From positions 224,001 to 288,000 of IMG/VR virus record IMGVR_UViG_3300024331_000007: 64,000 bases of DNA; one strand, given 5' to 3'. Positions 20,675 to 45,897 of this stretch are shown here, piece by piece (position 1 is the stretch's first letter; each line of letters opens with the position of its first letter). Made by a program: the position numbers and the translations under genes. This DNA comes from a virus (lineage: Duplodnaviria; Caudoviricetes). The notes under the pieces are model-generated. The model was not told where the DNA came from and did no database searches. It was given only the letters and a program-made list of their open reading frames with translations.

Positions 20675-21614
20675 TTAGTTAATCGTGGTTGTCTCGTCCT
20701 GATAAACAATTGTGACTTTGTTTTGTTGGTATAGTTCCTTCAGGGCTATCGCTATTGTTTCGGCTCTGGATTTCAGGGTGAACGTCTCAAGAGGATACAG
20801 AGGATACTGAATTATTTCGACAATGAAGCCGGGTTCCTCTCCCTTGTTGGGCACACCAGCAGCACTTACATTTCTGTAGATGAACTTAGTTGGAGTTATA
20901 GTAACGCAGAAGCCAATGGAATTACAAAAATCATGCAGAAAATTTTCAGCTTCCTCAATGGGGATGATTGCTTCGCTATAACCAACTCTTTGCCCAACAA
21001 ATATCTGGGCGGTAAAAGTCTTTTCTTTGACGGCTGTTCTGATTGCAGTTGTGTCGTTGATTGCGCTGTGAGTTGGTGAAATATAGGTTGTCTTACTCAT
21101 ATACATAACTCCGTTTTCAATGATGCCAGTTTCAATCTAATGTCGTTAATGAGAGTCTTTCTGGCGCGTTCCTGTTCCAATGTTACAGTGGAAAATTCAG
21201 TGCAATGCAGCAACCAATAATATTGTTCCTCGACTTCTTCGATCATTCGAAGACGCATTCTGGTATAATCAGCCGCATCCTCCCACATCTGTCTATGGTC
21301 AGTATTCCATATATGTTTGGCACCCAGATCAACTGTCCAAATATCTGACTTATAGGAATCACCATCATCGAATCCTGTTTTTGGTTCTTTCCAATACAGT
21401 CGCACAAATCCTTCGCTATAAGATTGGGCCATTAGTCGTAGTACTCCCCTTCCGTCCAGCGAACAGTATGAGTTACTTTCTCAGTGTGCTGACCGGGGTG
21501 GTGCATCCATCGATTGCAGGTCCCAATAACATGATGAGTTGATCCTTTGGCGAGTCTGGTATTGTTGCAATAGATATGACCAATCGCACATAAAATGTAT
21601 CGAAATAGTTTCAT
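20675..21614 (-). CDS. three hypothetical proteins: 20675-21106, 21097-21432, 21432-21614
   Basis: ORF track, co-oriented overlapping run. Confidence 0.55.
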
Positions 21615-23246
21615 TAGTTCTCCAACATGTACATCATTTGATGTTCAACATAATGCCAAGCATATTCCCATGCGCCTTCTTCTGTGTACTTACTGGTGGA
21701 AATAATACTGCCATTGCGATCAATCACAATATCGTAACTATATCGAACAACATCTGTGAAGATGCCATTATCCATCCTGTAATAATAAGTTTTTCTATTG
21801 TGCTTTAAACAATAAGCCTCGGGATATATTTCAAGGACCTTTTCCTTAAAATCTATGACTCCAGAATCTTCATTGTTTGGTATTCTATCCACGTCCATGC
21901 ATCTCTCCAAGATTCTTCCTCACTGTTTCCAACCCCGATAGTATGATGACCTGATCCCGTAACATAGTGCCATACTACGCTTCTACTATAATATGGAAAC
22001 CCGTCCACAAATGTTGCCGATGGATAAACAGCCAGAACTTTGGCTTTATAGTCTATGACTCCAACTTCTTCAGCATCTCGTTCTGAATGTAATACCATGC
22101 GTTTTGCCATGCACCATACTCCCAATAAGTATTTCGTGCCATCTGAACATCGCCGTTCCAAACATCAAAATATCTGCAACTAGTTATTCCATCGGGCTTG
22201 ACTGCGCGATTCCAGCCATGTTCAATACAGGTTGCCTCTGGATAAACAGCCAGAACTTTGGCTTTGTAATCTATTTCTCCAGCTTCGCCATCATTTGTGC
22301 TGATATTATTGTCCACGCTCTTTCCCACGCCCGTGTTTCGCTATCACAATGAGGACTCAATATATAAAATGTGAATCCTCTTTCCTCGGGTATTTCTGGT
22401 GACGCTCTGGATAGAATCACATAGGTCAATTCCAAGTAGTTCGCAACTCGGACTGGCTTCTTACAAAAGGCCAAAGGATAAATGGACTTGACTAATTCCT
22501 CGTAATTTATTCTCCCAGCTTCTCCAGCATTTCCCTCTGTATGTTCTGCCACGCCACTATCCATGCTGTTCCTCTCGTTCGTGTGCTTCCATGCAGCCAT
22601 TGCCACGTTTCCTGTCCTTCCCAATGAATAGACCATTGCCAAGTCATATCCATATCCCACGGTTCTCGGTGAATCATTCTGGCATTTGGAAATGTGGCTA
22701 GAACATGAGCACGAGCTATATTACCAAAATTACCAATATCTTCAGTGCGATAATGTTCCTGAGTATTCTTCATATGCTATCTCATTGTACATTTATTGTC
22801 GAAGTTTTTCCATCATCATTTCGTTTACTGTATCCCATGCTCTCGACCAAGCTTCCAAAGGACTATCACCAATTCCCATATTGAACCCATTTAGTTGCGG
22901 AGGTTCTTTCTTGTATTTGTGCATCTCCCCAGAATAAATTATGTACATTGGCGGGAAGGTTTTCCAACCATCTCTGACTGTCATATTGGCATTTGGGTAT
23001 GCCGTATGAACCAGCTTCATGAGTTTTCGAATTTTGCGAGTAGTTCTTGCTGAATCGATTTCCACGCTCTTTTCCATGCCTCCCTTTCTGTTTGTGCGTA
23101 CGCTCTGATGAACTGGTTTATGGATTGTTTGCTCCATGTGACCAAATAATATGGCGGTTCGTTTCTATTATTCTCACCAATATTCTTGCCATCATTAAAC
23201 ATGAGGCTGGCATCAGGATAAATCTTCAGCACTTTTTCTTTAACTG

Positions 23247-23471
23247 TCATTTTTCCAGCTTCATCAGCATAATTGCATTGATATATTCCATTGCCATTTC
23301 CCATGCTTCGGAATATGAGCTACGAATGGACACGTCCAGATACTATTCGTATCCATGTTTAGTTTTGTTTCCGCTGCACACAACATACCCTTTATTATCT
23401 CTGGAGTATGCTGTTACGACTCGCGCACTAGGATAGATGTTCGTCACGAAATGTATTGGATTTTCTTTCAT
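23247..23471 (-). pseudogene. family-A member with in-frame TAG
   Basis: MKENPIHFVTNIYPSA...KHGYE*YLDVSIRSSYSEAWEMAMEYINAIMLMKLEK; TAG at 23343-23345. Confidence 0.75.
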
Positions 23472-25470
23472 CAGTCTGCCAACTTGTCCAGCATTTTCTT
23501 GTCCATAATCTTTCGCCCCAAAGACCACATTTTCCGAGAAGATAAAGGTCCATGAATAAGTGAATAGCCTGATCCATCGCCATCCAGCACAAATACGATA
23601 TATCGTTCGTCTCCTTGAGTTGGGTAGAACTGGGCGTTTGGAAAATATTTCTTCACATATTTTTCATCTTTGGTCATGATTCCAACTTTTGCAGCATTAA
23701 TTCAGCTATGATTTTCTTTGCTTCTCTCCAAACTATTGATTCGTCCTCTTCTATGCGATGCCAAATCCATCCCAAAGTTAAATATGGCTCTCTTTCAGTT
23801 CCAATTGAAATTGCTGCCTGAGCATAATTCCATCGTATGAGTTTAGCCTCGGGATATATTGATAGAACACACTCTTTATCTGTCATGATTCCAGCACCAT
23901 AACCATACATCTTAGAATTGCTGACTTTGCTGATTCCCATGCCTCTTCTTCTGTCGGTAACCCCGAAAAACTGAAATATGAATTTTCGGGATATCCAGTG
24001 TATGCTCTAAACCTGTATAGATCATCCTTTGAATACGGATTTTTCACAATAAAAGCATTTGGATATGAGTTCACAACAAACTCTTTTGCTGTCATGACGC
24101 CAGTTTTCTCATCATTCTTGCATTCAGTATTCTTTTTGCATCGTTCCATTGAACTGACTCCCTTTTACTTGCCTTGATTAAGGCCCATGACCCATAATGT
24201 TTGCCTTCGTACTCAATGATTAAAAAGTCTTCAGTATCAGGCAGCTTTTCAAACCTAGCATTAGGAAAGACAGATAGTACAAACTCTTTGGCTGTCATTC
24301 TTCAAACTTCTGTAGCATCCTTTTCGTTATTTCCTGCCTGACATATCTCCATGCTGCTCTCGTATCCTTATACGTATACCAACCATATGTTACCCATAAA
24401 TAGTTGGGTGGCCGTCGCTCTAGGTATATTGCAATGAGATTACGGTCCACGCACCAGCGAACAAGGTTGGCTTCTGGATACACCGATCTAACAAATTGCT
24501 TATCAGTCATGATGCCAGCTTTCTGATCATCTCAAGTTCAATATTTTCCTTCAATCTTTTCCAAACTTCGCGCGCATCATTTCCAGTCATGACATATAAT
24601 TGAGTATTCGGTTCCAACCGATATGTGGAATAACCAGTGACGTATTCAGAATCAACCCATGCATGAGGGTATAATGATTTTACAAACTGCTTATCAGTCA
24701 TTGTGCAAGTTTCCTCAGCATTTCGACTTCAATACTTCCTCGCAATCCCGTCCACACTTCGTCTTCATTACTGCGTCTGGTAACTGTCCATTCTTCTTTT
24801 TCAAGTTTAAATAGGCAGTATCCAGCAATATAATGGGTCATAACCTCAGCCTGAGGATACATCGATAGAACGAACTCTTTATCGGTCATAATGCCAACTT
24901 TCTCAGGATGCTTTTGTTCAGTATATCTCTGGCAGCTTCCCATGCTGCCTCTTCTGTTTCGTACATCGGTATAGACCAATTTGATGCATACACGCCGACA
25001 ATATAGAATCGGCCCGGTTCTGGAGTTGTATAGGTCGCGCAGAACGCATCTGGATTAAGGCTTTGAACAAATTCTTTAGCCGTTAACTCGCCAGCTTGTC
25101 CAGAATCCGTCCGTTTGTTATTTTCCTTGCTCCGCACCACGCTTCCTCTTCTGTATTGTGAAGAATTGTTCTGCTGTCCATAAAACCCAGATTGAAAACA
25201 TAGTAGTATGTTTTCCAATTATATCTGTCTGGGCATACACATGCCTCAGGATAAATTGCAAGAACGAACTCTTTATCTGTCATTCTTCTAACTTCCTAAT
25301 CATTGCAAAATTAATATCTTCTCTGGCGTACCGCCAAGTCATGTTCTCTGTTGTTTCAGCGCAATATCCTATTGTCTTATAAGGAGAATGACCAATCTCA
25401 ATGCACATACCAGATTTAAATGAAATAAATTTGGCGTTTGGATAAACAGCCAACACGAACTCTTTGTCAG

Positions 25471-25689
25471 TCATTGTTCCAACTTTCTCAGCATATTCCA
25501 CTCAATGATTTCTCGTGCATCTTTCCATGCGTTCTCTGGTGAATTACAAAGTCCACTCAGAGCTTCAAAACTATAGAGTCCCATTCCTCGTACTACCTAA
25601 TATTGTTCTGGCGCGTTACCATAATCCTCACCGACTATTTTAATCGCTGCATTTGGGTGAAACATTCGAACAAATTGTTCAGGTGTCAT
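25471..25689 (-). pseudogene. family-A member with in-frame TAG (absent from ORF track)
   Basis: MTPEQFVRMFHPNA...EQY*VVRGMG...SPENAWKDAREIIEWNMLRKLEQ; TAG at 25597-25599. Confidence 0.8.
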
Positions 25690-26130
25690 ACTATTGAGTC
25701 GTTTCCCTCTAACTTATTCAGCATTCTTTGTCCAACTCTTTCTCGTGCTTCGGCCCATGCCTCATCTGGAGTTTCACAAGTTCCAGCAACCCAATCGTAA
25801 CAAACTTTACCATCAAATCGTATTACAATATAACCAACGTTGTTTTTGTATCGCCAACTCCAGCATGTTGACAATTGAACATCATCATACACGCTCATTA
25901 GGAACTCTTTATCTGTCATGATTCAAATGCCTTTAAGGTTTCCGTCAATATTCGTTCTTTACCATTGCGCCACATTTCTTCTTCAGTATCTCCCGACACA
26001 CAAAACGTAACTATCGATGCATGATGACCTGTTCGAGTGGCCCAAATTTCATAGCCTTTTTTACCCGACCAAAACACCTTTGTACGATATATTCGTGGAT
26101 ACACCGATCTAACAAATATCTCGTCTTCGG

Positions 26131-26381
26131 TCATTGTTCGAGTTTTTCCACCATTCGTCTTTGTGTTGTTAGCCACGCTCGTCTCCACGCTTCTTTAGCA
26201 TTCCACGGCGGAAGCCACCCCAATTTTTTATATTCGGGGGATCATTGGGTTGAGATGATAAATTGTCATACCAAATATAACCTTTAAAAGAATCAGTATT
26301 TCCAACCCACTGAATGACTTCCTTAGTCTGTGTTAGATATGCCTTTGGAAAAACCGACAGAACTTTTTGTCGATAACTCAG
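26131..26381 (-). pseudogene. frameshifted family-A member
   Basis: N-half RQKVLSVFPKA is in one frame; C-half KKLGWLPPWNAKEAWRRAW...MVEKLEQ is in the -1 frame. The shift lies within GATCCCCCGAATATAAAAAATT. Confidence 0.7.
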
Positions 26382-29028
26382 GCGCTTTCTAACTTGTCCA
26401 CCATGTCTTTTAGTATCTGTTCCCATGCCGCTTTCCATGCCTTCTTTGAATCATAAATTCTGTCACACAATTTTACAGTCTCGTAGTAATTGTTCCAGAA
26501 TCCTTTACATTCAGCCCTGTACTGAACTGATCCGTACCAAAACTCTGCGTTCGGATGAATCTGAAGAACTCGCTGCCTGTGCGTCAGGTGTTTTCGAACA
26601 TTCGTTTTAACCGTCATCGCTCTAACATTCTTAGCATTGTTTTTTCGTCATCCAGAATCTCAATCATTTCAGGGTCCATTTCGCAAAAGCAACCACCACG
26701 AATCTCCATATAGACTCGTCCGTCGTGACATTCAAACACCTTACCCAATTCAGATATGTCCTGCCATTTGATAAAAGGTCTGGTATGCCACACCCAATCT
26801 CCAACATTTATGAGTTTGCCATTCTTATCTTTCATGACTCCAGCCTTCTCAACATGAATCTGTCAACAATTCCGACTGCCTTTTGCCATGCGGAAGGTGC
26901 TGTATGAGCACAGGAAGCACACCAATTGTGGCCTTTCTCATCAATCCAAATCTCGTAACGATAATGTCCATCGGTATAAAACCTGAGATGGGCAGATGGA
27001 AAGATTGCCTGAATATGCTGCTTCGGAGTCATTCTGCGAGCTTGTCCAACATCTGTTTTTGAACTGTTCTCCATGCCTGTTCCCAAGCCCTTTCTGGTGT
27101 GTAGTCTTCCGCCAGTGTCACATCCCATGATTGCATTCCCTTTTCTTTTCGAACTTTAACAGACCACACACTCAAACCTGCAAATTTGAATGGGAATAGT
27201 GTTGCAGTTGGATATATTGCTTTAACGCTTTCTTCGGCTGTCATGGTTTAAATCTTCTGCGAGCCATTGCTTTTTCTTCCATCTCTTCATACATGCGCTG
27301 ATCCCACTCTCTTTCTTCCTCGCGCAGTTTTTCGAAGTATTCCTGTTCTAGCCTGTAGTCTTCTTCTCGTTCTCTCCAATACTGATCCATCGGGTCTTCT
27401 GCCAACTTGTCCAACATCTGCTGTTGAATGGCAATCCATGCTTGCTCCCATGCAACATCCTCAATCATATCTGGTGGACAAAACGTAGTGCTGATGGTTG
27501 CCAATTTCTGTTCAAATGGAAAGTCAGTAATCTCAATGAGAAACTGATCTTCCTTTGCATCACGAGCAATACGTTGGCTCTTGTGCGCAATTGCATTTGG
27601 ATATATTGCCAACACATGTTCTTTAGCTGTCATATTCCAGCTTCCTTAACATTTTGGTTTGAACATTTTTCCATGCTGACTCCCATGCATTATCAAGCGT
27701 AGACCCCACACCTATAGTATACATCTTTTTGTGCCAGTGCTTAATGTTAAAATCTGGGTAGTCGGAGCTAATTTCAACCAAATATATACTTAACGGAACC
27801 TTGCGGCCATCTCTTTTGTTTTGCAGGACTTTAATCTCTGCTTCGGGATAGATATTCAGAACATTTTCTTTAGCAGTCATATTTCGAATCTCTGTACCAT
27901 ATCTCTCATTATTCTGAATGCCGCCTGTTTCCAAACCAAAATTTCAAACATTCTTCTTGGAAGTGGATGATCTGTTGGCCTATGAACAGATGCCAGTGTT
28001 TGTTGATCCTCAGAAGTAGCAGGTGCACTGAGTAACAAATACGTTGTTCCTGATTTCCGCCCAACTCCGAATTTGTGTGTGAATGATTCTGGGTAGGAAC
28101 TAAGCACTATTCGTTTGGCCTCTCGTAGTGTCATGCGTTTTCCAGCTTCTCCAACATTTCATGTTGAACATCGCGCCATGCGATTGACCAAGCCAATTCT
28201 TCACTATCAGCCATTGTCATGTAATGCATTATAGGGGCCCCATCATATCTGATCCTGACTCGTCGCACATAATACATTAAACGACCATAAATCTGAATCG
28301 TGTCCGCTTCAGTTGTGCAATGGGCGCTTGGATATACCGCCATTACATTTTCCTTATCTGTCAAATGCGCCCTCCAACTGTAGTAGCATATTATGCTGAA
28401 TTTGTTTCCATGCTCGATTCCATGCAATATTTTCTGTGGCGCAAGTGCGGCCAATAAATCTGTCGTTCCATGATTTACCGCCGCAACATTTCTTATCACG
28501 GCATGGCTCGTTATAAACATACAAATAGAAACCATCATCCTCTCGGATGCAGGCATGTGGATATATTGCTTTGACTTTTTGTTCGGCTGTCTTTCTCATT
28601 GTGCCAACTTTGCCAGCATATCTCGCTGAATTTCAGTCCATGCCGCTCTCCACGCATTCTTTTTACATGCCACAGAAGGTCCAGCGTAGCCATTACTTCC
28701 TTCTGGACAACATTTTGGATTCCTGCAACCAAACGCCAGAACATAATAGTCAACTTGTTCTGATCCAACATCCACTCCTCGAACGTAGGCATGCTTATAA
28801 AGATTGATTACCTGATGTTTTGGTGTCATTGCTCTAACCTTCTAACCATTCCGATTGCAATCTTACCCCATGCATTTTTCCACGCAATTTTTGGCGTAAC
28901 ACCAACCCCAAGCCATGTTTCCGCCAATTCGCTGACACGAATATAAATTACCCAAAACTTTTTCACATGCTCGTATTTCTTCTGCTTTGCCGCTGGATAA
29001 ATCCGCCGCACATTTATCATGTCTTCGT

Positions 29029-29234
29029 TCATGATTCCAACTTCCTTAACATGTCTTCGCTCCAAGTTCCGTGGATGCAAGATACGAATGACCAACCAGC
29101 GCGTCATCAAAATGCTGAACTGTGTATCTGTAACAGGATGCGAATCGTTGTTCCGTGCAAAATGCCTGCGGATAAAACTTCAAAACCTTCTCACGAACGG
29201 AAACGAGTTCTGTTTGATCCTTGGAATAAGACAT
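29029..29234 (-). pseudogene. family-A member with apparent internal deletion/frameshift
   Basis: VREKVLKFYPQA...STELGA lacks the AW helix and stops; EDMLRKLES follows in another frame. Confidence 0.6.
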
Positions 29235-30194
29235 TCCTGAACTCCTTTCGTAATGGATAACCAAGTCCAATCCATGCTTGTTCCCACAACTGAGCATCGT
29301 ATTTGAAACTGCCATAAAATGTGTGATTATTGAATACTAACCACCTGCTTCCAACCTTAACACCGCGAACTTTCTTCTTTCTTCCACACACAGTTGCCCA
29401 ACCATCTTCAACTTTGGCTGTGGGGAAACACAATTTGACTTTTTCTTCAGTAGTCATGACATTAGCTTTTTCAACATCCGTTTCTGGATTCTTAGCCACG
29501 CCCATTCCCACAGATTTTCCTCAGACACCTTGTAGTAATCCATCTTGAAGATGAGCCATTTCCCGTCAGCAATCTTAATGCCAGAAACTTTATACTTGCG
29601 TTGCTTGAATCCATTAGCAGTTGACCGTTGGTAAACAGCTTCGGGATAAACGTTCTGTACCATCTCTTTGAAGTTCATTTGATTGCCAACTTTCTCAGCA
29701 TTCTTTCTTCAATCTTTTTCCATGTTCTTTCCCACACATATTCTCGGGAGAATCCACTAATGACATCCTGTACGGTATTTTCGTCCGAATACAACCAAAC
29801 CTCATACAAAAACTCATCAATACTTCCATGAGGGACAATCCTAAATTCAGTACGAGGATACAGGTTCATAACCATTTTTTCGTAATCTAGCTCGCCAACT
29901 TCTTCAACATTTCCTGCTGAATCTTTTTCCATGTACGTCTCCAAAGAATGTGCTCAAACTTTCCACCATATGCGTAACATTTATTACCGATCCAAACACC
30001 CTTGGCCATAATTTCTTTGCCGTAGTGCGATCCATCCGTTGACCAATCCCATGTTGATTGTGGTATCCAACCCCATTTCAATACAGCCTCTGGATAAACG
30101 GATTTTACTTTATCTTCTGCCCTTAATGAGGCAAACGTTCCTACACTCTTATTTTGAATGTTTGGGAACGTTATGTTCTTAGTCGATTTGTTTT

Positions 30195-30413
30195 TCATCC
30201 CATGATCTTTCTGAGTATATCTCGTCCTGCAATGCGTAAAAGATTTGTGATCTTGATTTCTGGAGCTTGCCGTTTCGTCTTGTGCAAAAAACAATAGTTG
30301 TTTCCAGATTCAGCCTGTAGCTTGCAACGATGTTTTTCCAAATACTTGTGAACTTCAGCATCGCTCATCAGCGAAATATCTGCGTCTCCGCAATAAATGC
30401 ATCTTTTACTCAT
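30195..30413 (-). CDS. small Cys/His protein inserted in the array
   Basis: CIYC...H...H.C...C..H; no YPxA motif. Confidence 0.55.
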   Translation of the reverse strand: MSKRCIYCGDADISLMSDAEVHKYLEKHRCKLQAESGNNYCFLHKTKRQAPEIKITNLLRIAGRDILRKIMG

Positions 30414-30632
30414 GACTCAAACTGCCTCATGATCTTGAAGTTTAATTCTTTCTTCAATTTCACCCAAACGCCATCTTCTGTTAAAGACCGTTGTAATTTG
30501 TCGTAATCTCCGAGTCCAAGTGATCCAACATATCGGACACCATCAGAAAATTTCAACGAAACAACTCTCGCATCTGGACACAACTCTTGCACGAATTGTT
30601 GGTCTTCGCTCATTAGAAACGACTTTCTATGC

Positions 30633-31317: not shown

Positions 31318-31503
31318 TAATGAATATGGTGATAATTCCAACAATACTTCGTCTCCCGGTTCAATTCGGATGTTGTTTTTGCGCAACCTTCCACCCAAAT
31401 AAGCTGTGATCTGCTGATTACCCGGAATCTCCACCAACCATGTTGTATTGGGGAGCGTCTTTAAAATCCTACCTCTTAGTTCTACCTGTTCGTCGCGTGG
31501 CAT
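31288..31503 (-). CDS. infA: translation initiation factor IF-1
   Basis: 71 aa; ELRGRILKTLPNTTWLV...AYLGGRLRKNNIRIEPGDEVLLELSPYSLSMGRIVYRY. Confidence 0.92.
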   Translation of the reverse strand: MPRDEQVELRGRILKTLPNTTWLVEIPGNQQITAYLGGRLRKNNIRIEPGDEVLLELSPYSLSMGRIVYRY

Positions 31504-31520: not shown

Positions 31521-31549
31521 ATTATACCGAATTTCTTACTTACTGTCAA
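31521..31549 (-). promoter_or_regulatory. perfect sigma70 consensus promoter for infA
   Basis: TTGACA (31549-31544), 17 nt, TATAAT (31526-31521); AAGGAG SD before ATG. Confidence 0.85.
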
Positions 31550-35800: not shown

Positions 35801-37488
35801 ATTTCGTAGTTCAAATTATCCGCTGCTGCTTGCCACGCCATTTCTTTTGTGGTTGACTTTCGCATATTACGCCAGCACATTGAAAGGTTTGTCCCATCAC
35901 TTGTGCGAACAAACCACTGTTTACTGACACGAACGCTCTGAATGCATTTAGCATCTGGGTACAATGACAACACGAATTTTTGTTCTGGTATCATCCTTCT
36001 AATTTCTTCAAAAATTGTTTTTGAACCATATCGTAGCTCTTTTGCCATGCTAGGCTTTCCTGTTTGTCGTCCGAATCAAGGTAGTATCTGTCGCCATGCT
36101 CATAATAACAAATGATTACAAATGAATCAGTTACTGATGGTTTTAAAAACCATACAGCCTGTGCCGTTGGATACATCTTCAATAAAGAACGTTTTGCGTT
36201 TTTCATGCTTCCAGCTTTTCCAATGCCAGTCTTCCAAGTTCATTTCGAGCAAATTCCCACGCTGTGTTAGGTTTCAATGATGGACCGCCCATCATTGTAG
36301 GGAATCGAGTAGGCAGAGCCACATAGTAAAAGAATCTTTGACCACCAAAAGACTTTACTTTTCTGAGTTTGGCTTCTGGAAAACTCTGTAGAACTATTTG
36401 TCTTGCTGTCATTACGACTCCAGTTTCTTAACCATCTTTTTTCCAATCCCCGCAGCCGCATCTTTCCATGCTCCAGCACGAGATGTCTGATGATAACCAA
36501 GAATTTGCATGTTCTTGTTCTCATCAATGTAAGATATCATAAATCCTTTGCCATTATTGAATATCGGACGACAATGAGCATTCTTGTATGAGGCGCGGGC
36601 TACGTTTCGTTCAGCTACCGCCTGTACTTCGTTTTTCGTCGTTGTCATCAATTCTCCAACTTTAATAAGAAGTCATTCTTTATTTCTTCTGCTGCTGTCA
36701 TCCACGCATCAGGTTCATTTATGAAACTGCTTCCGACCGTGTCAAGAATATCAGTGGTTCTGCTATTCTGAAACACCGTAAACGAACCCCACAGATACTT
36801 ACATACTGCATTTGGATAAACACCAAGAACTACATTTCTAGCCTCGATAAAATCGTTGTAATAGCTCATGATTCCAACTTCTTCAATAATTTTTGGCCCA
36901 TAACCTGTTTAGCCCAATACACAGAATTTCTCCAAGCCAATATTTCATTTTTTTGACTTGCTCCCAGATTGTCAATTTGAGTTCCATAATCAAAATATAT
37001 GATATACCACCGCGTTGTTTTCCCGCGATATGTATTATTAACTGCTACACATCTGGCACTTGGAAAATGTAGTTTGACAAATTTTTCGGCCCTAGTCATG
37101 CATCAAAAACCTTTCAGGATTGAGCGAAAGATGGATCGAAGCACTGCACCGTTTGACGGGAGTTTATGGAAATTGTGAAAATTGTGAAAGTCATTTGGAT
37201 CAAATTCAACAAAATGCTCGTATGTAGTTTTCCCATGTACTTGTCTGAGAATCCTCTTTCCGTCCATTGTTATTTTCTGCATGGTTTCAACAGTTGTCAT
37301 CTGATTCCAAACCCTTTCAGTATCGAACGACCAATTGCCAGTAAAACTTTTCCAGAAGATGGTATTACTTCAAAACATGTTATCGTAGCCTTATGTTTGC
37401 CTTTTTGAACTGTGTAAAACTGAGACACCTTATAGGTGTCTGCCATTGCCAATGGAAAAAGTTCTTTGACTCTTTGTTCGTTCGTCAT
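32871..37488 (-). repeat. family-A paralogue array, left arm part 2 (about 20 genes)
   Basis: 32871-33101, 33101-33427, 33427-33630, 33627-33845, 33842-34051, 34048-34269, 34262-34486, 34483-34698, 34695-34913, 34910-35164, 35161-35385, 35382-35573, 35570-35782, 35779-35994, 35991-36206, 36203-36412, 36412-36651, 36648-36869, 36866-37099, and a divergent member ending at 37297. Confidence 0.9.
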
Positions 37489-37597
37489 TTTGAAATCAAA
37501 CCCTTCCAAATCACATTCAAAAGAACAGTCAACACTTTCTTGCGCGATGCTACAGGTGGGACGTATGGATTATACACTCCACCGTCCCACATTTCTC

Positions 37598-38803
37598 TCA
37601 CTTCACACCCCGAAGCAAGATGCTGTCTCCGTTGATTGCTTCGCGAAGCGGAGTAGCAACGGCCTTGATTCCATTGAACCACTTGACGGCACCCGGCTTG
37701 CCATAGTTGGAAAATTCCTTCAACTGTTCGGCTGGCTTACGCAGAGTTTTTTGCACACTCTTTGTAGGATCGATGTTCGTCAAACGAGTGCTTTTGACTT
37801 CAAAAGACATTCCATTCAACGCAACATAGTGTCCTAATTTCCGAAGGCGAGTATTGTAAACCCACAATTCAGAGCATTTCAAAACTTGCGTTGCGTCAAT
37901 GCTCGTCAACTTCAATTCCTTGTACTCACGAAGAAACTTGAGTTTCGAAACAATCTTCGAGGGTGGTTTTGGTTTGCGCTGGCGAGTCTTATGCATGCTC
38001 TGCTTTTGATGACTGAACACGCTAATCTCGCTGATTGCTGTTTCCCACCATTCGATGGCCGCTTTCATCTTGCGCTTTCCTACGTGTTCATAGGACTCAG
38101 CAATTTGTGCATCTTTTCCAGCAAGTGCAGTTTTGTACTCGCTCAAATACTTCTGACAATAGTCAATCAAATCCTTTGAGCGATTCGCGGGAATTGTTGT
38201 TTCAGGGTCTTTCAGAATAGAGGAAACGGAAGGCGCTTTCTTCGCGGTTGAATAATCCGCTCCCACGAATTGATCGAATGCGTAATCCACTTCACCGCAA
38301 ACTTTACGAATCCGCGCTCTGAGATGATCCTGAATGTTTGGTTTTGATGTACTTCCTGCTTCCTTCTCTTCAATCTGCTTTTGATTAGTAAGACATTCCT
38401 TGATGAACTTCACGATGAAACGGCGTTCACGAAAACGCAGGAACAGTCCGACATGTGCCATACGCAAAACCTTGGCGACGGTAACAGAAAAAGTCAGTGT
38501 GGAATTTTTGATGGCAATAAGAAGTTCAGGAAAATGACCGCTCAAACCCAATGCGGAAAGTCCAAGTGCAATCAGTTCCTTATCTTCCTGAGTCTGTGCG
38601 TACCAGTTCAAGGCTGCGCTTAATTGTTTGTCATACTCAGTGCGAGTCCATGCCTTTTGAACATCGATAGAAGGCCACGTTGGTTCTGTTTCTCCAATGT
38701 ATTTCGCTCCCTCGCGTTTGAAATGCAAGGTACGAATGGGCTTCAAAGCCGCTGGCTGAAAAGAGCGTACAGGTCTGGAAGGCGTTTTTGCGCTGTTCTT
38801 CAT
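37598..38803 (-). CDS. 401 aa hypothetical phage protein, probably early and leaderless
   Basis: Long ORF; basic C-terminal ELWVYNTRLRKLGHY...VQKTLRKP region; promoter ends 6 nt before the ATG. Confidence 0.7.
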   Translation of the reverse strand: MKNSAKTPSRPVRSFQPAALKPIRTLHFKREGAKYIGETEPTWPSIDVQKAWTRTEYDKQLSAALNWYAQTQEDKELIALGLSALGLSGHFPELLIAIKNSTLTFSVTVAKVLRMAHVGLFLRFRERRFIVKFIKECLTNQKQIEEKEAGSTSKPNIQDHLRARIRKVCGEVDYAFDQFVGADYSTAKKAPSVSSILKDPETTIPANRSKDLIDYCQKYLSEYKTALAGKDAQIAESYEHVGKRKMKAAIEWWETAISEISVFSHQKQSMHKTRQRKPKPPSKIVSKLKFLREYKELKLTSIDATQVLKCSELWVYNTRLRKLGHYVALNGMSFEVKSTRLTNIDPTKSVQKTLRKPAEQLKEFSNYGKPGAVKWFNGIKAVATPLREAINGDSILLRGVK

Positions 38804-38809
38804 GTGCCT

Positions 38810-38838
38810 ATGATACCGAAGTTTAGAGCAAAAGTCAA
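38810..38838 (-). promoter_or_regulatory. sigma70-type promoter driving the left arm
   Basis: TTGACT-17nt-TATCAT-aggcac-ATG. Confidence 0.7.
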
Positions 38839-38899
38839 CGCAATCCGTAAAACCAGTGAAATCATATGCTTATTTGGCAAAATAAAATAAACTTTTTGG

Positions 38900-38950: not shown

Positions 38951-38954
38951 AACG

Positions 38955-39272
38955 ATGAGACGGAGAGTACACACAATTGAAACCCTTCGGATGCAAGGCA
39001 AACTAAACAAAGACTTTGCAAAAACCACTCCCGACCATGCCACGGACGGAACGAAAGCCTATGATGTGATTGGCATTTCAGGTGATCATTGGCAGGTTCA
39101 CAAGCACGGATGCAGCGCAACGTTCTCCAAGCCGGGTCAAGTTTTGACTGCTGATCTTGTTTGGTCCGCAAAGACAACCGATATACCCGCGCAAGTTATT
39201 GATTCTGAACTTCTTGACATGGGTTTTGACTACACTTGCGTAGTTTTCCACAATTGCACAAAGAAATATTAA
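38955..39272 (+). CDS. early hypothetical protein
   Basis: ATG 38955 after GGGAG SD. Confidence 0.6.
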   Translation: MRRRVHTIETLRMQGKLNKDFAKTTPDHATDGTKAYDVIGISGDHWQVHKHGCSATFSKPGQVLTADLVWSAKTTDIPAQVIDSELLDMGFDYTCVVFHNCTKKY

Positions 39273-39281
39273 ACTTTTTGG

Positions 39282-39332
39282 TTGACTTTGCCGCCAAAGT
39301 TTGATATTCTATATGGGTAGTCGAGAAGGAGC
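39282..39332 (+). promoter_or_regulatory. early promoter cassette, copy 2
   Basis: TTGACT-17nt-TATTCT-ATATGGGTAGTCGAGAAGGAG. Confidence 0.75.
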
Positions 39333-39335
39333 CAC

Positions 39336-39855
39336 ATGAGCTACAAAGCAGCGATTAAGGTCGGTCTCGGAAACGAACGTAGCTACAACTCTCTGCGCTT
39401 TGCAACTCCCGAAGAAGCAACGGCCTATGCGAAGAATTTGTTCTCTCGCTGGATGCTCATGACTGGTTTTGAAGTCGAACCCTCTGAGGATGCCGTGAAC
39501 TATGTGTGGGAAAACAATGTACTTACGGCAATTGCCGTTACAAACCCACCGATCAGTGTATAACCAATCTCAATATTCGGGAGAACAAACGATGCGCCCA
39601 CTCAAGTTTGAAGGTGTTGCTGAAGTTGGAGACAAGATTCGCGCCTATGATTTTGAACCTATGGAGGGGCGTCCTGACCGCTATATCGAGGGCGTCGTTC
39701 GTGAAGTTGTTCAATGGGTTCGCGCTGGTGGATACAAAGCATATGACATTGTTCTGACATATGACAGCATGGGCGGAAGGCCAATAGGCACAGCAATTTA
39801 CGTTCCAATGGAAATTGGAATGGACTTCGACATTCGAGTTCAGAAAATCAGTTAA
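39336..39855 (+). CDS. two early hypothetical proteins: 39336-39563 and about 39592-39855
   Basis: ORF track, SD-preceded ATGs downstream of the promoter. Confidence 0.6.
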
Positions 39856-39903
39856 CCCCTTTGTTTCTGCACGAAAAAATGTCAGTATTTTCGCATAATT
39901 TGC

Positions 39904-39954
39904 TTGCATTCATGACCAAACTTTGATATTCTATATGAGTAGTCGAGAGGGAGA
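39904..39954 (+). promoter_or_regulatory. early promoter cassette, copy 3
   Basis: TTGCAT-17nt-TATTCT-ATATGAGTAGTCGAGAGGGAG. Confidence 0.75.
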
Positions 39955-39958
39955 CACA

Positions 39959-40598
39959 ATGATTGCAAACGCGAAAGTTTCTCAGAGGCTTGAAGGTTTC
40001 GTAGCAAAAGTACAGGCCGAAACACTTGCGTATTACGCCAAAAAGTTCCCTACGCTCATTCCTTCGATCATCGAAGTTGAAGAGGGCAGCAAGTTCTATC
40101 GCATCGTAAAAGCAGAGCGTGGTACACGTAGCGTTCACTCGTTTGTGTCCAAGGCGAACGGCGACATTTTCAAGGCTGCTGGTTGGAAGGCACCCGCGAA
40201 GCATGTTCGTGGCAACATCTTTGCCGCTGATTACGGCTGGTCTTCAATGAATGTGTATGGCGCGAAATATCTCCGCTAAACAATTTGTGTATGTCAACCG
40301 ATAGCAAAGGATTGAAGCAATGACTGATCTATTTTCGGCAACGATCAAGCAATACATCTACGGAACATCAGGAACTGAACTTCCGCCGCCTGTTGAAAAA
40401 GTAAAGTCAACGACATTTTTATCTTTGCCAACTGAGACGAAAGAAGAATTCGAGCGCAAAGTCCAAGAATACGGCATGGCACTGCGCATCAAAGCTGCCA
40501 ATGTTACTCCACGGCCATATAGTCAACGAGATGGAATTGATTGGTCTATATCATGTATTGAACCTCGACCTTATGATTTTGATAGCAACGCGGAGTAA
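39959..40598 (+). CDS. two early hypothetical proteins: 39959-40279, 40320-40598
   Basis: The first carries SVHSFV...GDIFKAAGWKAPAKHVRG, a motif I associate with phage hypotheticals. Confidence 0.6.
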
Positions 40599-41163
40599 TC
40601 GTTTATGTCTCAGCATAGCTCCGCTAAACAATTTGTGCAATCCCTTTACCCATCTGCGATATGCAAGTGGGTAAAGGTGCTTCCGAATGAGTTTGTGATT
40701 ACCGTTTCGTTTGCTGAATGGAACGGCTTTGAAAGTCGCCAATATAAAACAGTTGAATTGGAATGGGCAACAACTGCGATTGGCGCATGGTGCGCAATGC
40801 GCGAACTAATCAATGCGAAGATTATGGAGAAACTAAACTCGTGATCGACAAAAAGATTCGCCCACTGCCGAAAAGACTTTCGAAGTTTCAAAGGATTGTT
40901 CTGGCGTCGTATCCAAACGCCCGAATCGGAAGTGCCGATGCTGTCAAGGAAACAATGAAACCTTATTGGGATCGCAAGTCTGGATTTGAGATGTTTGACA
41001 GCTTTGGTAAAACTTCGAAGTGGGCAATTTATACAGAGCCAGAAAGTGATCGAATTACAATCTTAGTTAACGTGATTGGCGTGAGTTCTAGCTCACAATC
41101 GAAGGCATGGGAAGATGCTTGCAACGTAATGGGCGCATTCATGTTGATGAAATTGGAGAAATA

Positions 41164-41592
41164 ATGGAAAAGTCCGTAATCTCGTCAGAACAAATGGATA
41201 ACTTGTGCTTTGCCAGCTATCAACTATTGCAGGCGATGAGTAATGTTTATGGTTCCGATCCTGCCTATGAAATGTTCCTCAAACTTGAGGAAGTACTAGG
41301 ACCTGAGGTTAAGGGCAATCTATTTTTGAAGATGTTAGACAGCCAATACACAGGTGCTGGCCCTATGCATTTCAAATTTCCAAATGGTCAGTGTGGAAAC
41401 GCCATTCTCATGATTCGAGGCGTCCGTGAATTTTCAGTTGACAAATATGGAAACAAATGGAGTCTGAAGGACGCCAAAGATGTTATCGACACGTCGAGGT
41501 TTGGTGGTATCGGAACAATTCATTTCATAACAGTTGGCGAGCGTAACGAATTTATCAAGCTGTTGAAGTCTAATAACGGCGTGACCATATGA
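41164..41592 (+). CDS. protein with ribosomal L7/L12 C-terminal-like segment
   Basis: AILMIRGVRE...WSLKDAKDVID resembles the L12 CTD pattern KIxxIKxVRExTGxGLKEAKDxVE. Confidence 0.45.
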   Translation: MEKSVISSEQMDNLCFASYQLLQAMSNVYGSDPAYEMFLKLEEVLGPEVKGNLFLKMLDSQYTGAGPMHFKFPNGQCGNAILMIRGVREFSVDKYGNKWSLKDAKDVIDTSRFGGIGTIHFITVGERNEFIKLLKSNNGVTI

Positions 41593-42027
41593 GTCCGAAC
41601 GAAACAATTGTGAAGGCAGTCTATCCGAATGCAGAAATTCGGGAAGTAGCATCTGGAGTTTATCGAGTCTTTACGCAGCCAAGCGGATTTTCTAAAGATG
41701 GAGATTTGACTTTTAGCATTGGGCATTCTCTCGGCGCTTCATGTTTCACAGATACAGAAGACAAATGGAAGAATGCGGCAGATTCGATCAATTTCAAAAT
41801 GATGAGGGAACTTGAATTATGACACCAAAGCAAACAATTCAGCAAGTTTATCCACACGTAAATTGCCACAAAATAACATGGGCAATTGGATCGAACCTTC
41901 CCAGATTTCAAGTTTATGTAAATGGAATCTCAACTTCATTTGGAGTAACTCGTTACGCAGCATGGAAGGAAGCATTGGTTTGGTATAATAACGCCATTCA
42001 AAAACGGCTGCTGAGAAAGCTGGAATC

Positions 42028-42273
42028 ATGAAAGAATATCTTCGTAATCACAATAATGTAACGATGTTTCTGAGTACGTGGGTTTCGTTTCCAATTTGTA
42101 TTCTTTTGGTTCATAACATGACCATTCCAGTAATGCCGTGGCATCTTTGTTTCAAGCTCGTTTTTCCAATGCTGGGATTTTGCTCAGTTGTATTTTTTCT
42201 GTTGGGTTGGATGACTGACGGAATGAATAGGCAGACCTTAAAGGAAGAATTTTTGCGGAAACTGGAATCGTAA
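42028..42273 (+). CDS. two-TM membrane protein carrying the array tail
   Basis: Hydrophobic helices followed by LKEEFLRKLES. Confidence 0.65.
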   Translation: MKEYLRNHNNVTMFLSTWVSFPICILLVHNMTIPVMPWHLCFKLVFPMLGFCSVVFFLLGWMTDGMNRQTLKEEFLRKLES

Positions 42274-43771
42274 TGTACAAAACAGAAAAATTCGTGAAGT
42301 CTGTTTTTCCAACTTCCAAAGCGTGTCCTTTATATGGAGGGACCTCGTTCATGATCGACGGATTTCCAGAAGGTTCAGGAATGAAACGATGGGACACATG
42401 GCATGAAACTGAACGAAAATCATGGAATGATGCAGCTAGACAGATACACAGAAATATGTTGAAGAAACTGGAGAATGCGTGAGCAAGGCTCAAAAATTCG
42501 TGAAGTCTCTTTATCCCGATGCGTACCTGCTAGAAACGCTATCACCTGTTGGCAATCATCGGTATCAGGTAGTGTACGATATTACTGGAACCTTTATGCC
42601 AACATGGTATTGGGCTAAAAAGAATGATGCATGGAAACAGGCTGAGTTAAGAATAAATCAGAGACTCATGGAGAAGCTAGAATCGTGAGAGCAAGGGATC
42701 AAGTTTTGGCGAGGTATCCAGATGCTGTGGTGTTCAAATCATCCGCCACCTGTATGTGGGAACTGTACTCAAAATTGAGAGCCAAACATTGCTTCAACGG
42801 ATTTATTGTTTGGGGATGTATGACTAAAGGATCGGCGTGGCAAGAAGGACTAGACTATCTTGACCGCGAACTTTTGAAGAAGTTGGAATCATGACAGATA
42901 AAGAATTTGTTCAAACCACATATCCCGATGCTGTAATGAGAACTAAAGATTTCTTTGGTCTTAACAAATTAGGCACTGACGAAAACATCTACGCAATTTT
43001 TCGCGGGGATCGAAAGAAAGCCAAACGAAACCATGCAATAACAATGTTCTGGACTAAGACGGAAGACGATGCATGGAAGCAAGCAGCCGCTTACCTACGA
43101 CAACAATTTTTGAAGAAGTTGGAATCATGACTGATAAGCAGTTTGTACTCTCAATCCACGACGACGCATTTGCATCTGAGAGCAATATTTCGGGCTTCAT
43201 AGTAATCTATGACGATAACCTGCAATTCCACCAACTCAGTCAATACTGGATCATTGAAGAGGATGCGTGGAAGGATGCAGCAGATCGACTGAGGGAAAGA
43301 TTTCTGGAAAAATTGGAAAGCCAATGACAGATAAGCAATTTGTAAAATCAGTTTGTCCGACTGCCCATCTGCGTAATACGCAGAAAAGTAAAACTGTTTT
43401 TTGGTATATTGACACTCGCCTAAAAGGTGCTTACTGGCCTAAAAAAATCTCAGGAGAGTTTATTATCAAGGGCGATGCGTGGAAACATGCAGCAGAAAGA
43501 CTTCGTATGGACATGTTAAGGAAACTTGAATCATGACGGAGGAAGCTGAACTCGCAAAACAGTTTGTGCTATCCATTTATGCTGGAGCTAAATTTGTGCG
43601 AAGAGAGGAGATGCCCAACATAGATGCATTCGCACCAACACCCGACGATTGCCAAATTATGGATGCGGATAGGCGTCATTCTTTAGCTATGAAATGGTCC
43701 TACAATGAAAATGATGCTTGGATTGACGCCCGAAATTTTATCAACTTCAAAATGATGCAGAGGTTGGAATC

Positions 43772-43998
43772 ATGAATCCGTTCGAAGCAGTTGATTACGT
43801 CCGAGGAATATATCCGTTTGCTTATTGCAAGGAAACCTTTTCCTATGGGAAAAGGGGTTTCGTTATTATGGACGCGGAACGCGGCTCAGGTCATGACGAA
43901 GAATTTTTAACTGGATGGAGCTATACCACAAGAGAACAGGCGTGGGTGAAGCTGTGAGATACATTCATCTCAACATGCTTAGGAAGTTTGAATCATGA
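43772..43998 (+). pseudogene. family-A member with a 1-nt deletion after the AW motif
   Basis: QAW-[GT]-EAVRYIHLNMLRKFES: only 2 nt lie between TGG and GAA, giving a premature TGA at 43955-43957. Confidence 0.75.
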
Positions 43999-44409
43999 CT
44001 GACAAGGAGTTTGTTATATCAGCTTATCCCAATGCCGAATGCGATGACAGTCGGCTATTATTTGACCGTAATGGCGTTTTCATGTATGCAATTTATTTGG
44101 CGGGTAGCAAACCTCGTTCAAGTATTTCGGCAATGTGGGCGGAATCCGAAGAACAGGCATGGAAGGAGGCAGCGGACATTATCAGATATGATCTTCTGAG
44201 GAAGTTTGAGTCATGAACGAAGACATGGAATTTGTAAAACGATTGTATCCAACCGCAGTGTATGATTCTCATGCATTTTGGGTTTGTGCGGACACAATTG
44301 AGGCTGGTAAGAAACGCACATATATTTTAGGTATCGGTGGAAATGCAAAGAATGGTTGGACCCATGCAGCGCAACACCTTCGTAATAGGGTGTTGCGCCA
44401 ATTTGAAAG

Positions 44410-45897
44410 TTAACCAATCTTGAAACAGATTTTCCCACCGGGTCTTGACGATGCACTGTAGTTTTTTCGGCTGAAAAATTTAACTGTTCCTGTGAATACA
44501 GGTGGCCAAATTACTTGGAAGTTTGAGAACGATGCTCCATTACCAGTTTTCTTAACGCTCGTCTTAACTTGAAGCATATTGCTGCGGCTCAAAATCTCTC
44601 TGAAAAAGTCAGTCACAAATTTTGAGTTCTTATTCAAATGATCAGTGACTGAGTGAGCCACGATGGTTAGCAAATGATAACCAACTGTATAATTCGGACT
44701 GTTCACATTTGGATTTGTGACTGGATTTTTCAGCAATGCCTTTAGCTCTTTCGACAAATGCTTCTTATCCATATGAGGATCGGCGATTGCTCTTTTGATT
44801 TCATCACGCATTGCTGGAGTTATTATCTTATAAAGCACACCAAGGACCAGCGGCCCTTCTTCAGCAGATTTATCCTTCACAACTTTCATAACACTGAACA
44901 GGCTTTTGTACTTTCCGCTTTCCACTAAATCTTCGTATCGTTCTGGATTTCGTTCTATGGCAGAAGTTAAGCTTGTGATGCTTGCTGCTGCTCCGCCCTT
45001 TCCATCCTTGCTGCTGATACCAATCTTATCATTCTTCAGAATTAGATAACTATCAATCAAGGCTTCCCTGTCGCTCATTGGATATCCAATTAATTTGATC
45101 TTCCTCCAACTTGAACCCATTGGTTTCAGCAATTGATCCTCGACTTCTCTGTAATCTCCAGAAACAAAATGTCCTGTGAGTAGCGCGATAGGTGCGGCAA
45201 TTTCTCCAAGGCTAACTTCATATGATGTTGCATATTGGGCAGCATTGGCAACAGGTGTATCAAAACCAGCATATACGTTCTTTACTAGCTGAATAGATTG
45301 CTGACGAACGTCCTGTGGTATTTCTGTATGAGTTGGAAGATTCGTCTGAATTGTTTCCATAATCTCATCAACGGTCATGTATCTGCCGTCACCCACAACG
45401 ACGCTTGGGGTGAGATTCAGGTCAGTTTTTTGTTGTACGTTGTCGTTAATTGAATAACCAGTGTCTCTGGCAAAATCGCTGTTGCTCCAAAAGAATGGAA
45501 CAGCACCAGCACTTTTTGTATTGAATAATTTTACAAATGCAACTGTCTCGCCTCTGCCATTCTTCCATAGAGTAACAAGGGCTGCTCGACCATTCGTATT
45601 AACCAAATTCCAATTTGCATTTGAGATTCTTGCTTTCTTTTGATATTGCGCAAGAACATCCATAACTTTCATGTAACCAGTTTTCAGTAGCTTTTTCTGC
45701 TCTGCTGGCGGAAGTTTACGGGCCTGTTTTGGCAGGGCTTCAATCGTGTCGTTTTCATAAAATGCGGCATCTTCGGGGAAAATAGCATTGCCGATGGCAG
45801 TTATCTTATGCCCGTCTTTGTCGGTGAATACAGCCGACTCCTGTGAGCGGACATATATTCCACGACTTCCAGCTTCTAGTAGTTGATGATATTTCAT
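44410..45897 (-). CDS. 495 aa late hypothetical protein, possibly virion-internal
   Basis: TAAATA (45903-45908)-N5-ATG; MKYHQLLEA N-terminus. Confidence 0.65.
   Translation of the reverse strand: MKYHQLLEAGSRGIYVRSQESAVFTDKDGHKITAIGNAIFPEDAAFYENDTIEALPKQARKLPPAEQKKLLKTGYMKVMDVLAQYQKKARISNANWNLVNTNGRAALVTLWKNGRGETVAFVKLFNTKSAGAVPFFWSNSDFARDTGYSINDNVQQKTDLNLTPSVVVGDGRYMTVDEIMETIQTNLPTHTEIPQDVRQQSIQLVKNVYAGFDTPVANAAQYATSYEVSLGEIAAPIALLTGHFVSGDYREVEDQLLKPMGSSWRKIKLIGYPMSDREALIDSYLILKNDKIGISSKDGKGGAAASITSLTSAIERNPERYEDLVESGKYKSLFSVMKVVKDKSAEEGPLVLGVLYKIITPAMRDEIKRAIADPHMDKKHLSKELKALLKNPVTNPNVNSPNYTVGYHLLTIVAHSVTDHLNKNSKFVTDFFREILSRSNMLQVKTSVKKTGNGASFSNFQVIWPPVFTGTVKFFSRKNYSASSRPGGKICFKIG

Follow-up and report, generated by a model that had tools for sequence, protein, structure and literature searches.

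Why should a bacteriophage carry some seventy copies of one very small gene side by side? This question is raised by a 64,000-nucleotide (nt) stretch of viral DNA (Caudoviricetes), here called the window, which corresponds to bases 224001-288000 of the record IMGVR_UViG_3300024331_000007. The record is 359,890 bp long, comes from soil metagenomes and has a CheckV completeness of ~90%; GC content is ~41% throughout the window. A preliminary description, made from the letters of the window, had reported a divergent two-arm array of paralogous mini-genes with conserved ends and hypervariable cores, and had read it as a diversified binder library. The locus occupies ~23 kb of a ~360-kb phage, and we consider that it is almost certainly a real array of one selected protein family.

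A family of small genes in two divergent arms

The family, here named F1, was delimited with a hidden Markov model (HMM) that was seeded with 21 clear members and iterated over all stop-to-stop frames of the whole genome to convergence, with a threshold of E<=0.01. This model found 84 matches in the genome (E 1e-4 to 1e-20), of which 76 lie in the window and 71 lie within positions 21614-44413, 57 of them on the minus and 14 on the plus strand; the control search on reversed translations gave 0 matches. The ~70-copy family in two divergent arms that the preliminary description had announced is therefore present, and the limits that it had set for the array are exactly the stop codons of the outermost F1 members. 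The 71 matches in the locus consist of 65 full-length genes and 6 fragments, and a relaxed threshold adds two divergent copies (Table 1). Outside the array there are, besides an outlying trio, a single copy at 6149-6355 and a fragment at 6913-7080.

F1 proteins are short, with a median length of 74 amino acids (aa), and every one of the 84 matches stands in a frame of 155 codons or fewer. Pairwise identity between paralogues has a median of 23% and a maximum of 47%. Across 77 aligned members, the N-terminal end is marked by V6 (90%), Y10 (73%), P11 (92%) and A13 (86%), and the C-terminal end by A53 (71%), W54 (100%), A57 (79%), L69 (82%), E70 (76%) and S71 (79%), with I61, M65 and L66 likewise conserved in the last helix; the consensus motif proposed beforehand was accurate by these column frequencies. 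Between the two ends, columns 14-48 have near-maximal entropy. The conserved columns (V, Y, P, A, W, A, I, M, L and L) include no catalytic-type residue and, because the conserved residues are hydrophobic, F1 is probably not an enzyme.

The family is not already annotated in Pfam-A, PHROGs v4 or the PDB sequences. Among 69 members, the comparison with Pfam gave no family match, just scattered single chance matches, and that with PHROGs v4 gave 2 weak single matches and otherwise nothing; the best match in the PDB sequence search had E 1.2. Two members searched by tblastn against 50,697 GenBank phages had no match, and in a narrow test one orthologue group scanned against bacterial and archaeal species genomes had no relative. 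A profile search of 1.84 billion cluster representatives recovered 1,771 F1 proteins at E<=1e-3 and 137 at E<=1e-10; these are mostly 63-95 aa long, and all source names that were looked up were 'hypothetical' or unnamed. Some metagenomic proteins on phage-like contigs (proteins P0021, P0039 and P0074; contig L015) carry 3-4 fused F1 repeats without the C-terminal KLES tail, and since F1 occurs as fused repeats, the domain folds autonomously. One of them, P0021 (493 aa), has an added hydrophobic C-terminal region that is predicted to span the membrane.

Reliability of the assembly

Could the array be a product of misassembly? This is unlikely, given the agreement between assemblies. Logan contigs of 68 kb and 42 kb from the probable source run show 0 differences over 21500-30669 and 32670-41499, with a flat depth of 22-23x over the array; they break only near 30.65 kb, at a short repeat, and in a tandem block of a second small-gene family, F2. 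A MEGAHIT contig from ENA (359,469 bp) matches window positions 18131-38364, a range that takes in the entire minus arm, with 100% identity, and ~99% identical array fragments occur in three other soil runs. Three assemblers are thus concordant, with the qualification that their assemblies may come from one sample or from common reads. No near relative was found among the 50,697 GenBank phage records, and megablast of 10 kb of the array locus against the GenBank phages gave no match.

Predicted fold and its relation to RNA-binding domains

An AlphaFold2 model was made from the 69-member F1 alignment (predicted local distance difference test, pLDDT, 92.8; predicted template modelling score, pTM, 0.79). 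It places helices at residues 3-10 and 50-71 and strands at 15-20, 27-34 and 41-47. The conserved ends are thereby the two helices, packed on a three-stranded antiparallel sheet which, together with its loops, makes up the variable core. Conserved ends and variable centres, as described beforehand, are confirmed by column entropy, but the core is a beta-sheet and not free-form.

The top matches to this model in a Foldseek search of the PDB are all double-stranded RNA (dsRNA)-binding domains (dsRBDs), namely those of MLE, DHX9, RNase III and Staufen (probability 1.0, E 5e-3, TMq 0.58). VIA-align, which is independent of Foldseek, gives RNase III with Z 6.9 and a root-mean-square deviation of 2.6-4, and ranks 1-35 are dsRBDs or dsRBD-containing proteins. 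The same domains come first in AFDB clusters, Swiss-Prot and BFVD, the best BFVD/AFDB matches being unnamed proteins of uncultured phages; ESM Atlas returned unnamed clusters only, with scores under 0.9. Weaker matches include the ribosome hibernation factors HPF and RaiA and the N-terminal domain of HicB (Z 4.7). On the strength of the model, F1 very probably has a dsRBD-like fold.

No such link emerges from sequence methods. The dsrm family was not matched at E<=0.1 by any of the 69 F1 members, and a six-frame PF00035 search of the whole genome gave no match at E<=10, with 10 of 14 control genomes positive. Profile-profile alignment (hhalign) of F1 with 86 enterobacterial RNase III dsRBDs covered 19 helix-2 columns in the expected register at a probability of 2.9%, against a shallow template made of near-identical enterobacterial sequences only (Neff 1.65). 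In canonical dsRBDs, helix 2 begins with a lysine motif that contacts dsRNA. The F1 consensus here is [ST]-E-x-E-A-W, in which E reaches 51% and W 100%. Because sequence methods give no link to dsRBDs and the lysine motif is replaced, we file F1 as dsRBD-like in fold only.

In comparison with dsRBDs (PF00035; the RNase III C-terminal domain, DHX9/MLE and Staufen), F1 has the same alpha-beta-beta-beta-alpha order over ~70 residues, a small or Gly-rich turn before helix 2, an Ala-rich face of helix 2 and an ...L..KLE-like helix end. It differs in the absence of any sequence match, in the replacement of the basic helix-2 motif by [ST]ExEAW with its invariant Trp, and in consisting of stand-alone proteins instead of modules of larger enzymes, 30 of 77 of them acidic. 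HicA and HicB are also small stand-alone proteins of the dsRBD-like fold class, but F1 has neither their conserved His nor a two-gene toxin/antitoxin pairing, and neither HicA_toxin (PF07927) nor HicB_lk_antitox (PF15919) was found in the genome at E<=10, with positive controls.

The fold gives rise to the main rival explanation, RNA or ribosome binding, according to which F1 proteins would be derived dsRBDs acting on structured RNA (phage or host transcripts, rRNA, tRNA-like molecules or RNase III substrates). Specificity would be adjusted through the variable sheet and loops, and the array would belong to an unusually large investment of this phage in translation and RNA metabolism. That dsRNA-binding domains top five fold libraries speaks for it, as do the weak matches to HPF and RaiA and the basic charge of 39 of 77 members (isoelectric point, pI, >8). 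A gene for an IF-1 homologue is embedded in the array of every relative seen, and the interleaved F2 proteins have a KOW/SH3-like barrel, a fold common in ribosome and RNA proteins. Against these points stand the acidic charge of 30 of 77 members (pI<6), the absence of PF00035 and dsrm matches, the low profile-profile probability, obtained against a shallow template, and the substitution of [ST]-E-x-E-A-W for the lysine motif. We regard RNA binding as unlikely on balance.

Evolution of the array

Three related contigs (L014, L009/L012 and one from ENA) are syntenic with the locus: a large gene, a long arm with IF-1, a 401/410-aa gene, a short arm and a 495/513-aa gene. The 401-aa orthologue is 84% identical in L014, whose long arm has ~45 small genes, and 64% identical in L009/L012, which has 26 + 7 F1 matches, while the ENA contig has ~16 small genes in its long arm. 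The long arm thus holds ~16, 26 and 45 copies in the relatives vs 57 here, and blocks such as 35779-36651 and 23471-24510 are absent from L014. These differences and the six fragments bear out the turnover of copies that had been suggested from the window.

Between this phage and L014 there are 30 reciprocal best F1 pairs, which are collinear and 45-90% identical (flanking genes 78-84%, IF-1 97%). By the Nei-Gojobori method these pairs have a median proportion of nonsynonymous differences (pN) of 0.24 and of synonymous differences (pS) of 0.68, the latter saturated. By region, pN rises from 0.18-0.20 in the helices to 0.39 in the core. For the neighbours it is 0.10 (401-aa gene) and 0.02 (IF-1), so that F1 exceeds them in evolutionary rate by a factor of two to twelve. 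Orthologues keep 47% identity in the core, at the very columns that are near maximal entropy across paralogues. Since pN is below pS and the core is kept to this degree, each paralogue is individually constrained, core included. Between orthologues selection is purifying, and positive selection is not demonstrable.

How did the copies arise? The resemblance between adjacent F1 copies exceeds that between random pairs by a small but significant margin (0.264 vs 0.240, permutation p<2e-4), and the best paralogue of a gene stands a median of 8 genes away vs 19 expected, which fits ancient local tandem duplication. With 71 of its 84 matches in one locus, this adjacency signal and a variable copy number, F1 is a tandem multigene family.

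Neutral or selfish amplification would account for such a family by unequal crossing-over at the conserved gene ends, leaving functionless copies as filler in a headful-packaged jumbo genome. The conserved junctions could indeed promote unequal recombination, copy number is several-fold variable among relatives, and the locus contains six fragments as well as several copies that lack a canonical start codon. Yet at least 65 reading frames are intact, the scaffold residues are kept at 23% identity, pN is well below pS in the 30 collinear orthologue pairs, and there are no recent duplicates, the maximum identity being 47%. We therefore consider amplification without function most improbable.

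Conserved ends around variable centres are also the classic layout of silent cassettes, that is, gene-conversion donors to one expressed gene, or of targets of a diversity-generating retroelement (DGR). These readings were rejected and have next to no probability in our judgement: every copy has its own start and stop and usually a ribosome-binding site, the genome has no larger 'expression-site' gene with an F1 domain, the orthologues are kept in order under purifying selection, and the divergence, in contrast to that produced by DGR mutagenesis, affects every type of residue and also the length.

The 401-aa gene that opens the minus arm was used to look for related loci. A single 401-aa protein query for related loci found nothing, and a three-sequence alignment found 43 distant homologues (IMG/VR contigs L016-L058, 36-38% identity). 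None of these 43 has F1 copies within 10 kb of the 401-aa gene, which places the origin and growth of the array within a narrow clade.

Gene junctions and probable translational coupling

Among 91 same-strand junctions there are 46 ATGA overlaps of 4 nt, 8 overlaps of 1 nt, 21 longer overlaps and 16 gaps. Stop and start therefore overlap at 75 of the 91 (82%), and the chain of overlap-coupled genes noted beforehand is borne out. The junction sequences are mostly TTGGARTCATGAC. Typically they read TTGGAR-TC-ATGA-C, which encodes L-E-S-stop, carries GGA(G) 4-5 nt before the next ATG and includes that ATG; the KLE(S/N) codons thus often double as the GGA(G) ribosome-binding site of the next gene. 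Terminator-like sites in the locus number 8 vs 14.5 expected. By this architecture, the arms would be translationally coupled operons.

Is the tail then conserved merely as an RNA signal? The Leu of ..LE.. is encoded by 5 synonymous codons, with NTG at 68% vs 46% in the large genes of the window (a moderate excess), isolated F1 copies elsewhere retain KLES without a downstream gene, and the KLES residues form the end of helix 2 in the model. For these three reasons, the tail is selected also as peptide. Such dual coding, with tail codons doubling as the next ribosome-binding site and the stop overlapping the next start, may shape the evolution of the array, and the conserved junctions may also stabilise or propagate it.

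Seven F1 genes on the minus strand (at 21614, 21853, 22053, 22271, 24886, 26169 and 29675) lack ATG at the usual overlap and have ATA (four cases), TTA, CTA or CTG instead. Their frames are open 15-19 codons upstream to an ATG within the GCATGG (Ala-Trp) of the preceding gene, use of which would make the genes overlap by 46-58 nt. The genes with ATA are the four distal-most ones; in three of them the gene before ends in TAG, and in the fourth it ends in TAA. Read-through of TAG by suppressor tRNAs was considered and rejected, because it would not fuse neighbouring genes in frame.

Promoters and timing of expression

The preliminary description had the arms radiate from a sigma70 promoter cluster. 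What supports this is a 64-nt promoter and 5'-untranslated-region element present in three direct copies between the arms, each of which heads a plus-strand gene, together with one minus-arm site. A generic sigma70 scan, on the other hand, was not above shuffles. The element comprises a TTGAC(A/T)-like -35 box (TTGAC/TTGCA), a 17-nt spacer, a TG-extended TATTCT -10 box, a Shine-Dalgarno region (GTAGTCGAGAGGGAG) and ATG; downstream of TG-TATTCT it reads GTAGTCGAGAGGNA and then ATG. A 21-nt probe of the element has 11 matches in the genome vs 0 in each of 5 shuffles, and at least 7 of the 11 have the full promoter-like architecture. Further sites lie at genome coordinates 140658, 141195, 167891, 186387, 200515 and 201104, and the element also branches the assembly graph. 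It is probably an early promoter cassette of the phage.

The minus-arm site is related to the element and lies inverted. Its -10 box stops 6 nt short of the ATG of the 401-aa gene, which has no clear Shine-Dalgarno sequence; this spacing suggests a transcript that is leaderless or has a very short leader. Away from the inter-arm cluster, a perfect consensus promoter lies inside the minus arm at 31.5 kb. Host-type transcription of the arms is plausible from these sequences.

An alternative with a different timing is that F1 proteins are virion-associated late proteins (decoration, internal or ejected) which would provide bulk or antigenic diversity. The distant 401-aa homologues lie between baseplate-like and tail-sheath-like genes, and in one relative a large flanking gene has a faint Phage_base_V match. 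None of the 43 distant relatives, however, has F1 near that gene, which places the array outside the conserved structural module. The promoters present are host sigma70-like, and the T4-type late motif TATAAATA is not enriched but under-represented (21 vs 36-47 in shuffles). Among the neighbours are SbcCD-like recombination genes and, in relatives, dUTPase and DNA polymerase genes, and seventy subunits with unrelated surfaces are hard to place in a symmetric particle. A structural or packaged role is thus very unlikely.

A possible function

The explanation that we favour is as follows. Local tandem duplication has grown F1 into two divergent polycistronic arms in which each stop overlaps the next start. 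The helices serve as a fixed hydrophobic scaffold, with a sheet and loops that differ between paralogues and are partly conserved between orthologues. Host sigma70 RNA polymerase would transcribe the arms from the repeated consensus-like promoters, from which we infer that the proteins would be made together early in infection. As there is no conserved polar or catalytic residue, and the dsRBD lysines are replaced by acidic residues and Trp, F1 proteins would be non-enzymatic binders that present different sheet surfaces. The array would then be a set of specific ligands directed at variable macromolecules of the host or of a competitor, serving as a counter-defence or host-manipulation repertoire. 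This logic would be comparable to that of multigene families in large DNA viruses of eukaryotes and of immunity-protein arrays. Lineage-specific expansions are a classic mark of genes in conflict, and those described from phages have been small.

Taken as a whole statement, function included, we hold this explanation to be evenly balanced between right and wrong. A diversified-binder function in phage-host conflict is a matter on which we lean slightly to doubt, and the host-takeover or anti-defence role put forward beforehand is likewise something we infer. The most specific version, in which each of the ~70 paralogues on the dsRBD scaffold neutralises or redirects a different strain-variable host factor (a defence effector, toxin or nuclease), is possible though somewhat improbable.

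Several points weigh against the explanation. Selection offers no direct arms-race signature by these estimates, because it is purifying and not positive between orthologues and synonymous change is saturated; nor do the paralogues look like a recent 'accordion', being at most 47% identical and thus old. The timing of the minus arm is uncertain, since the distant homologues of its first gene sit among baseplate and tail-sheath genes. The generic sigma70 scan found no excess of sites over shuffles. With Z under 8 the fold matches score in the middle range, and sequence comparison does not establish homology to dsRBDs; RNA binding is what the fold is best known for, and 39 of 77 members are basic.

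Anatomy of the locus and its neighbours

Besides F1, the locus contains 6 F2 copies, IF-1, the 401-aa gene, an antisense 204-aa open reading frame (ORF) and ~12 further small genes (Table 1). The minus arm runs in the order 401-aa gene, two small genes, 19 F1 genes with a divergent copy, five F2 genes, one F1 gene, IF-1, the antisense ORF and ~36 F1 genes. The two small genes end alike, in ...(R)SILKGF, and look like a separate mini-family heading the array; the 70-aa one shows borderline similarity to the N-terminal half of F1. IF-1 holds the same position in 4 of 4 related contigs. Among the plus-arm leader genes, the 106-aa one is DUF7717. No Rfam families and no tRNA genes were found in the window.

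Table 1. Features of the F1 array and related genes (window coordinates)
Feature	Position	Strand	Basis or remark
Minus-arm distal block: ~36 F1 genes and fragments 23343, 25471, 26131, 26169, 29046	21614..30613	-	HMM, gene map
F2 gene in distal block	26614-26835	-	F2 HMM
Divergent or frameshifted F1 copy	29191-29511	-	Relaxed HMM
Unrelated 72-aa gene in distal block	30195-30413	-	Gene map
Antisense 204-aa ORF inside minus arm	30703..31317	+	phrog_15526, 2e-19
IF-1 homologue in array	31288..31503	-	Pfam eIF-1a, 8e-18
Perfect 12/12 sigma70 consensus (TTGACA, 17 nt, TATAAT), just upstream of IF-1	31521..31549	-	Promoter scan
F1 gene beside IF-1, among the best-conserved orthologue positions across relatives	31536..31763	-	HMM, orthologues
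Five tandem F2 genes, 22-nt overlap each	31742..32874	-	Translations, F2 HMM
Minus-arm proximal block: 19 F1 genes	32871..37099	-	HMM; nearly all junctions ATGA/TAATG/TGATG
Divergent 108-aa F1 copy in proximal block	33101-33427	-	Relaxed HMM
Two small genes (65 and 70 aa) between 401-aa gene and first F1	37103..37509	-	L014 orthologues
401-aa gene heading minus arm	37598..38803	-	phrog_11903, 1e-49
Sigma70-like promoter (TTGACT, 17 nt, TATCAT)	38810..38838	-	Inverted repeat; ends 6 nt before 401-aa gene ATG
Three direct copies of 64-nt promoter and 5'-untranslated-region element	38895-38958, 39277-39340, 39899-39962	+	Direct-repeat family
Five non-family plus-arm leader genes (105, 75, 87, 106, 92 aa)	38955..40598	+	Orthologues in relatives
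Plus arm: 13 full-length F1 genes and truncated copy 43772-43957	40605..44413	+	HMM
Unrelated 161-aa gene interrupting plus arm	41107-41592	+	Gene map
Unrelated 81-aa gene interrupting plus arm	42028-42273	+	Gene map
Outlying F1 trio beside SbcD-like phosphoesterase gene	59058..59822	-	HMM; Metallophos match

The antisense ORF has no Pfam match. Beside it lies a repeat (30640-30714) that occurs elsewhere in the sample and has a depth of 39 vs 22, and loose assembly ends were seen at 30622 and 30714 in three runs; the segment 30640-31317 may be a mobile insertion.

The F2 family consists of proteins of ~75 aa that start with MKDxDGxxLxxGDxV and end with ...EEAMLWKLEN, a tail that resembles that of F1. 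Its HMM matches 38 places (39 domain rows) genome-wide, ~14 of them in one block at genome 67-70 kb. F2 is modelled (pLDDT 83) as an SH3/KOW-like barrel of five strands with a C-terminal helix, and its fold matches are weak (eL21, NusG-KOW and chromodomains). Together, F1 (84) and F2 (38) make up more than 120 genes of this phage.

Two side observations concern single members and outliers of F1. The member at 27241-27633 (minus strand) has a 55-residue, highly charged, Glu/Arg-rich C-terminal extension, which is kept in its L014 orthologue (67% identity over 129 aa). The outlying trio adjoins genes for SbcC-like (594 aa; SMC_N/AAA_23) and SbcD-like (339 aa; Metallophos) proteins at 55835-59061 (minus strand), and this SbcC/SbcD-like pairing recurs with one F1 gene in the related contig L059.

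Comparison with known gene-family expansions

The preliminary description knew of no phage family expanded to this degree, and none of this size turned up in the literature searched. The largest single-family expansion that was found, and the closest, is the ~35-copy lineage-specific expansion of a zinc ribbon in Bacillus phage G, which was called 'unprecedented' (PMC7824862). Both cases involve one small non-enzymatic domain that is amplified in a jumbo genome and whose function is only guessed. F1 differs in its fold and its number, 84 vs ~35 copies, to which the 38-copy F2 is added, as well as in its two divergent coupled operons and its syntenic relatives with graded copy numbers.

Large phages also have clusters of small early genes, such as the hyperplastic regions of T4-type phages and the host-takeover module of SPO1. 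These resemble the F1 array in their dense ORFs under 100 codons, host-type promoters, content that varies between relatives and position beside replication or recombination genes; they consist mostly of unrelated ORFs, often with their own promoters, whereas the F1 array is a single family in long coupled operons. Among eukaryotic viruses, the multigene families (MGF) of African swine fever virus and the poxvirus 'accordions' are paralogue arrays linked to host range and immune evasion. They share with F1 tandem paralogues whose number differs between related viruses. F1, however, belongs to a bacterial virus, its fold is unrelated and its paralogues are ancient (median identity 23%) where those of the eukaryotic viruses are recent amplifications. 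Large viruses are thus known to expand small domains in a lineage-specific manner; what is new is the F1 family, its scale and its operon architecture.

Significance

With a well-predicted fold, clear orthologues in relatives of graded copy number and 1,771 cluster representatives in metagenomes, F1 provides a tractable entry into the 'dark matter' of small phage proteins. If F1 binds RNA, bacterial viruses would have a new, derived branch of the dsRBD fold. If, instead, the members are specific binders that each act on a different host factor, the array would be the first counterpart in a bacterial virus of the immune-evasion multigene families of large eukaryotic viruses, and it would be a natural collection of dozens of new inhibitors that share a tiny, designable 70-residue scaffold.

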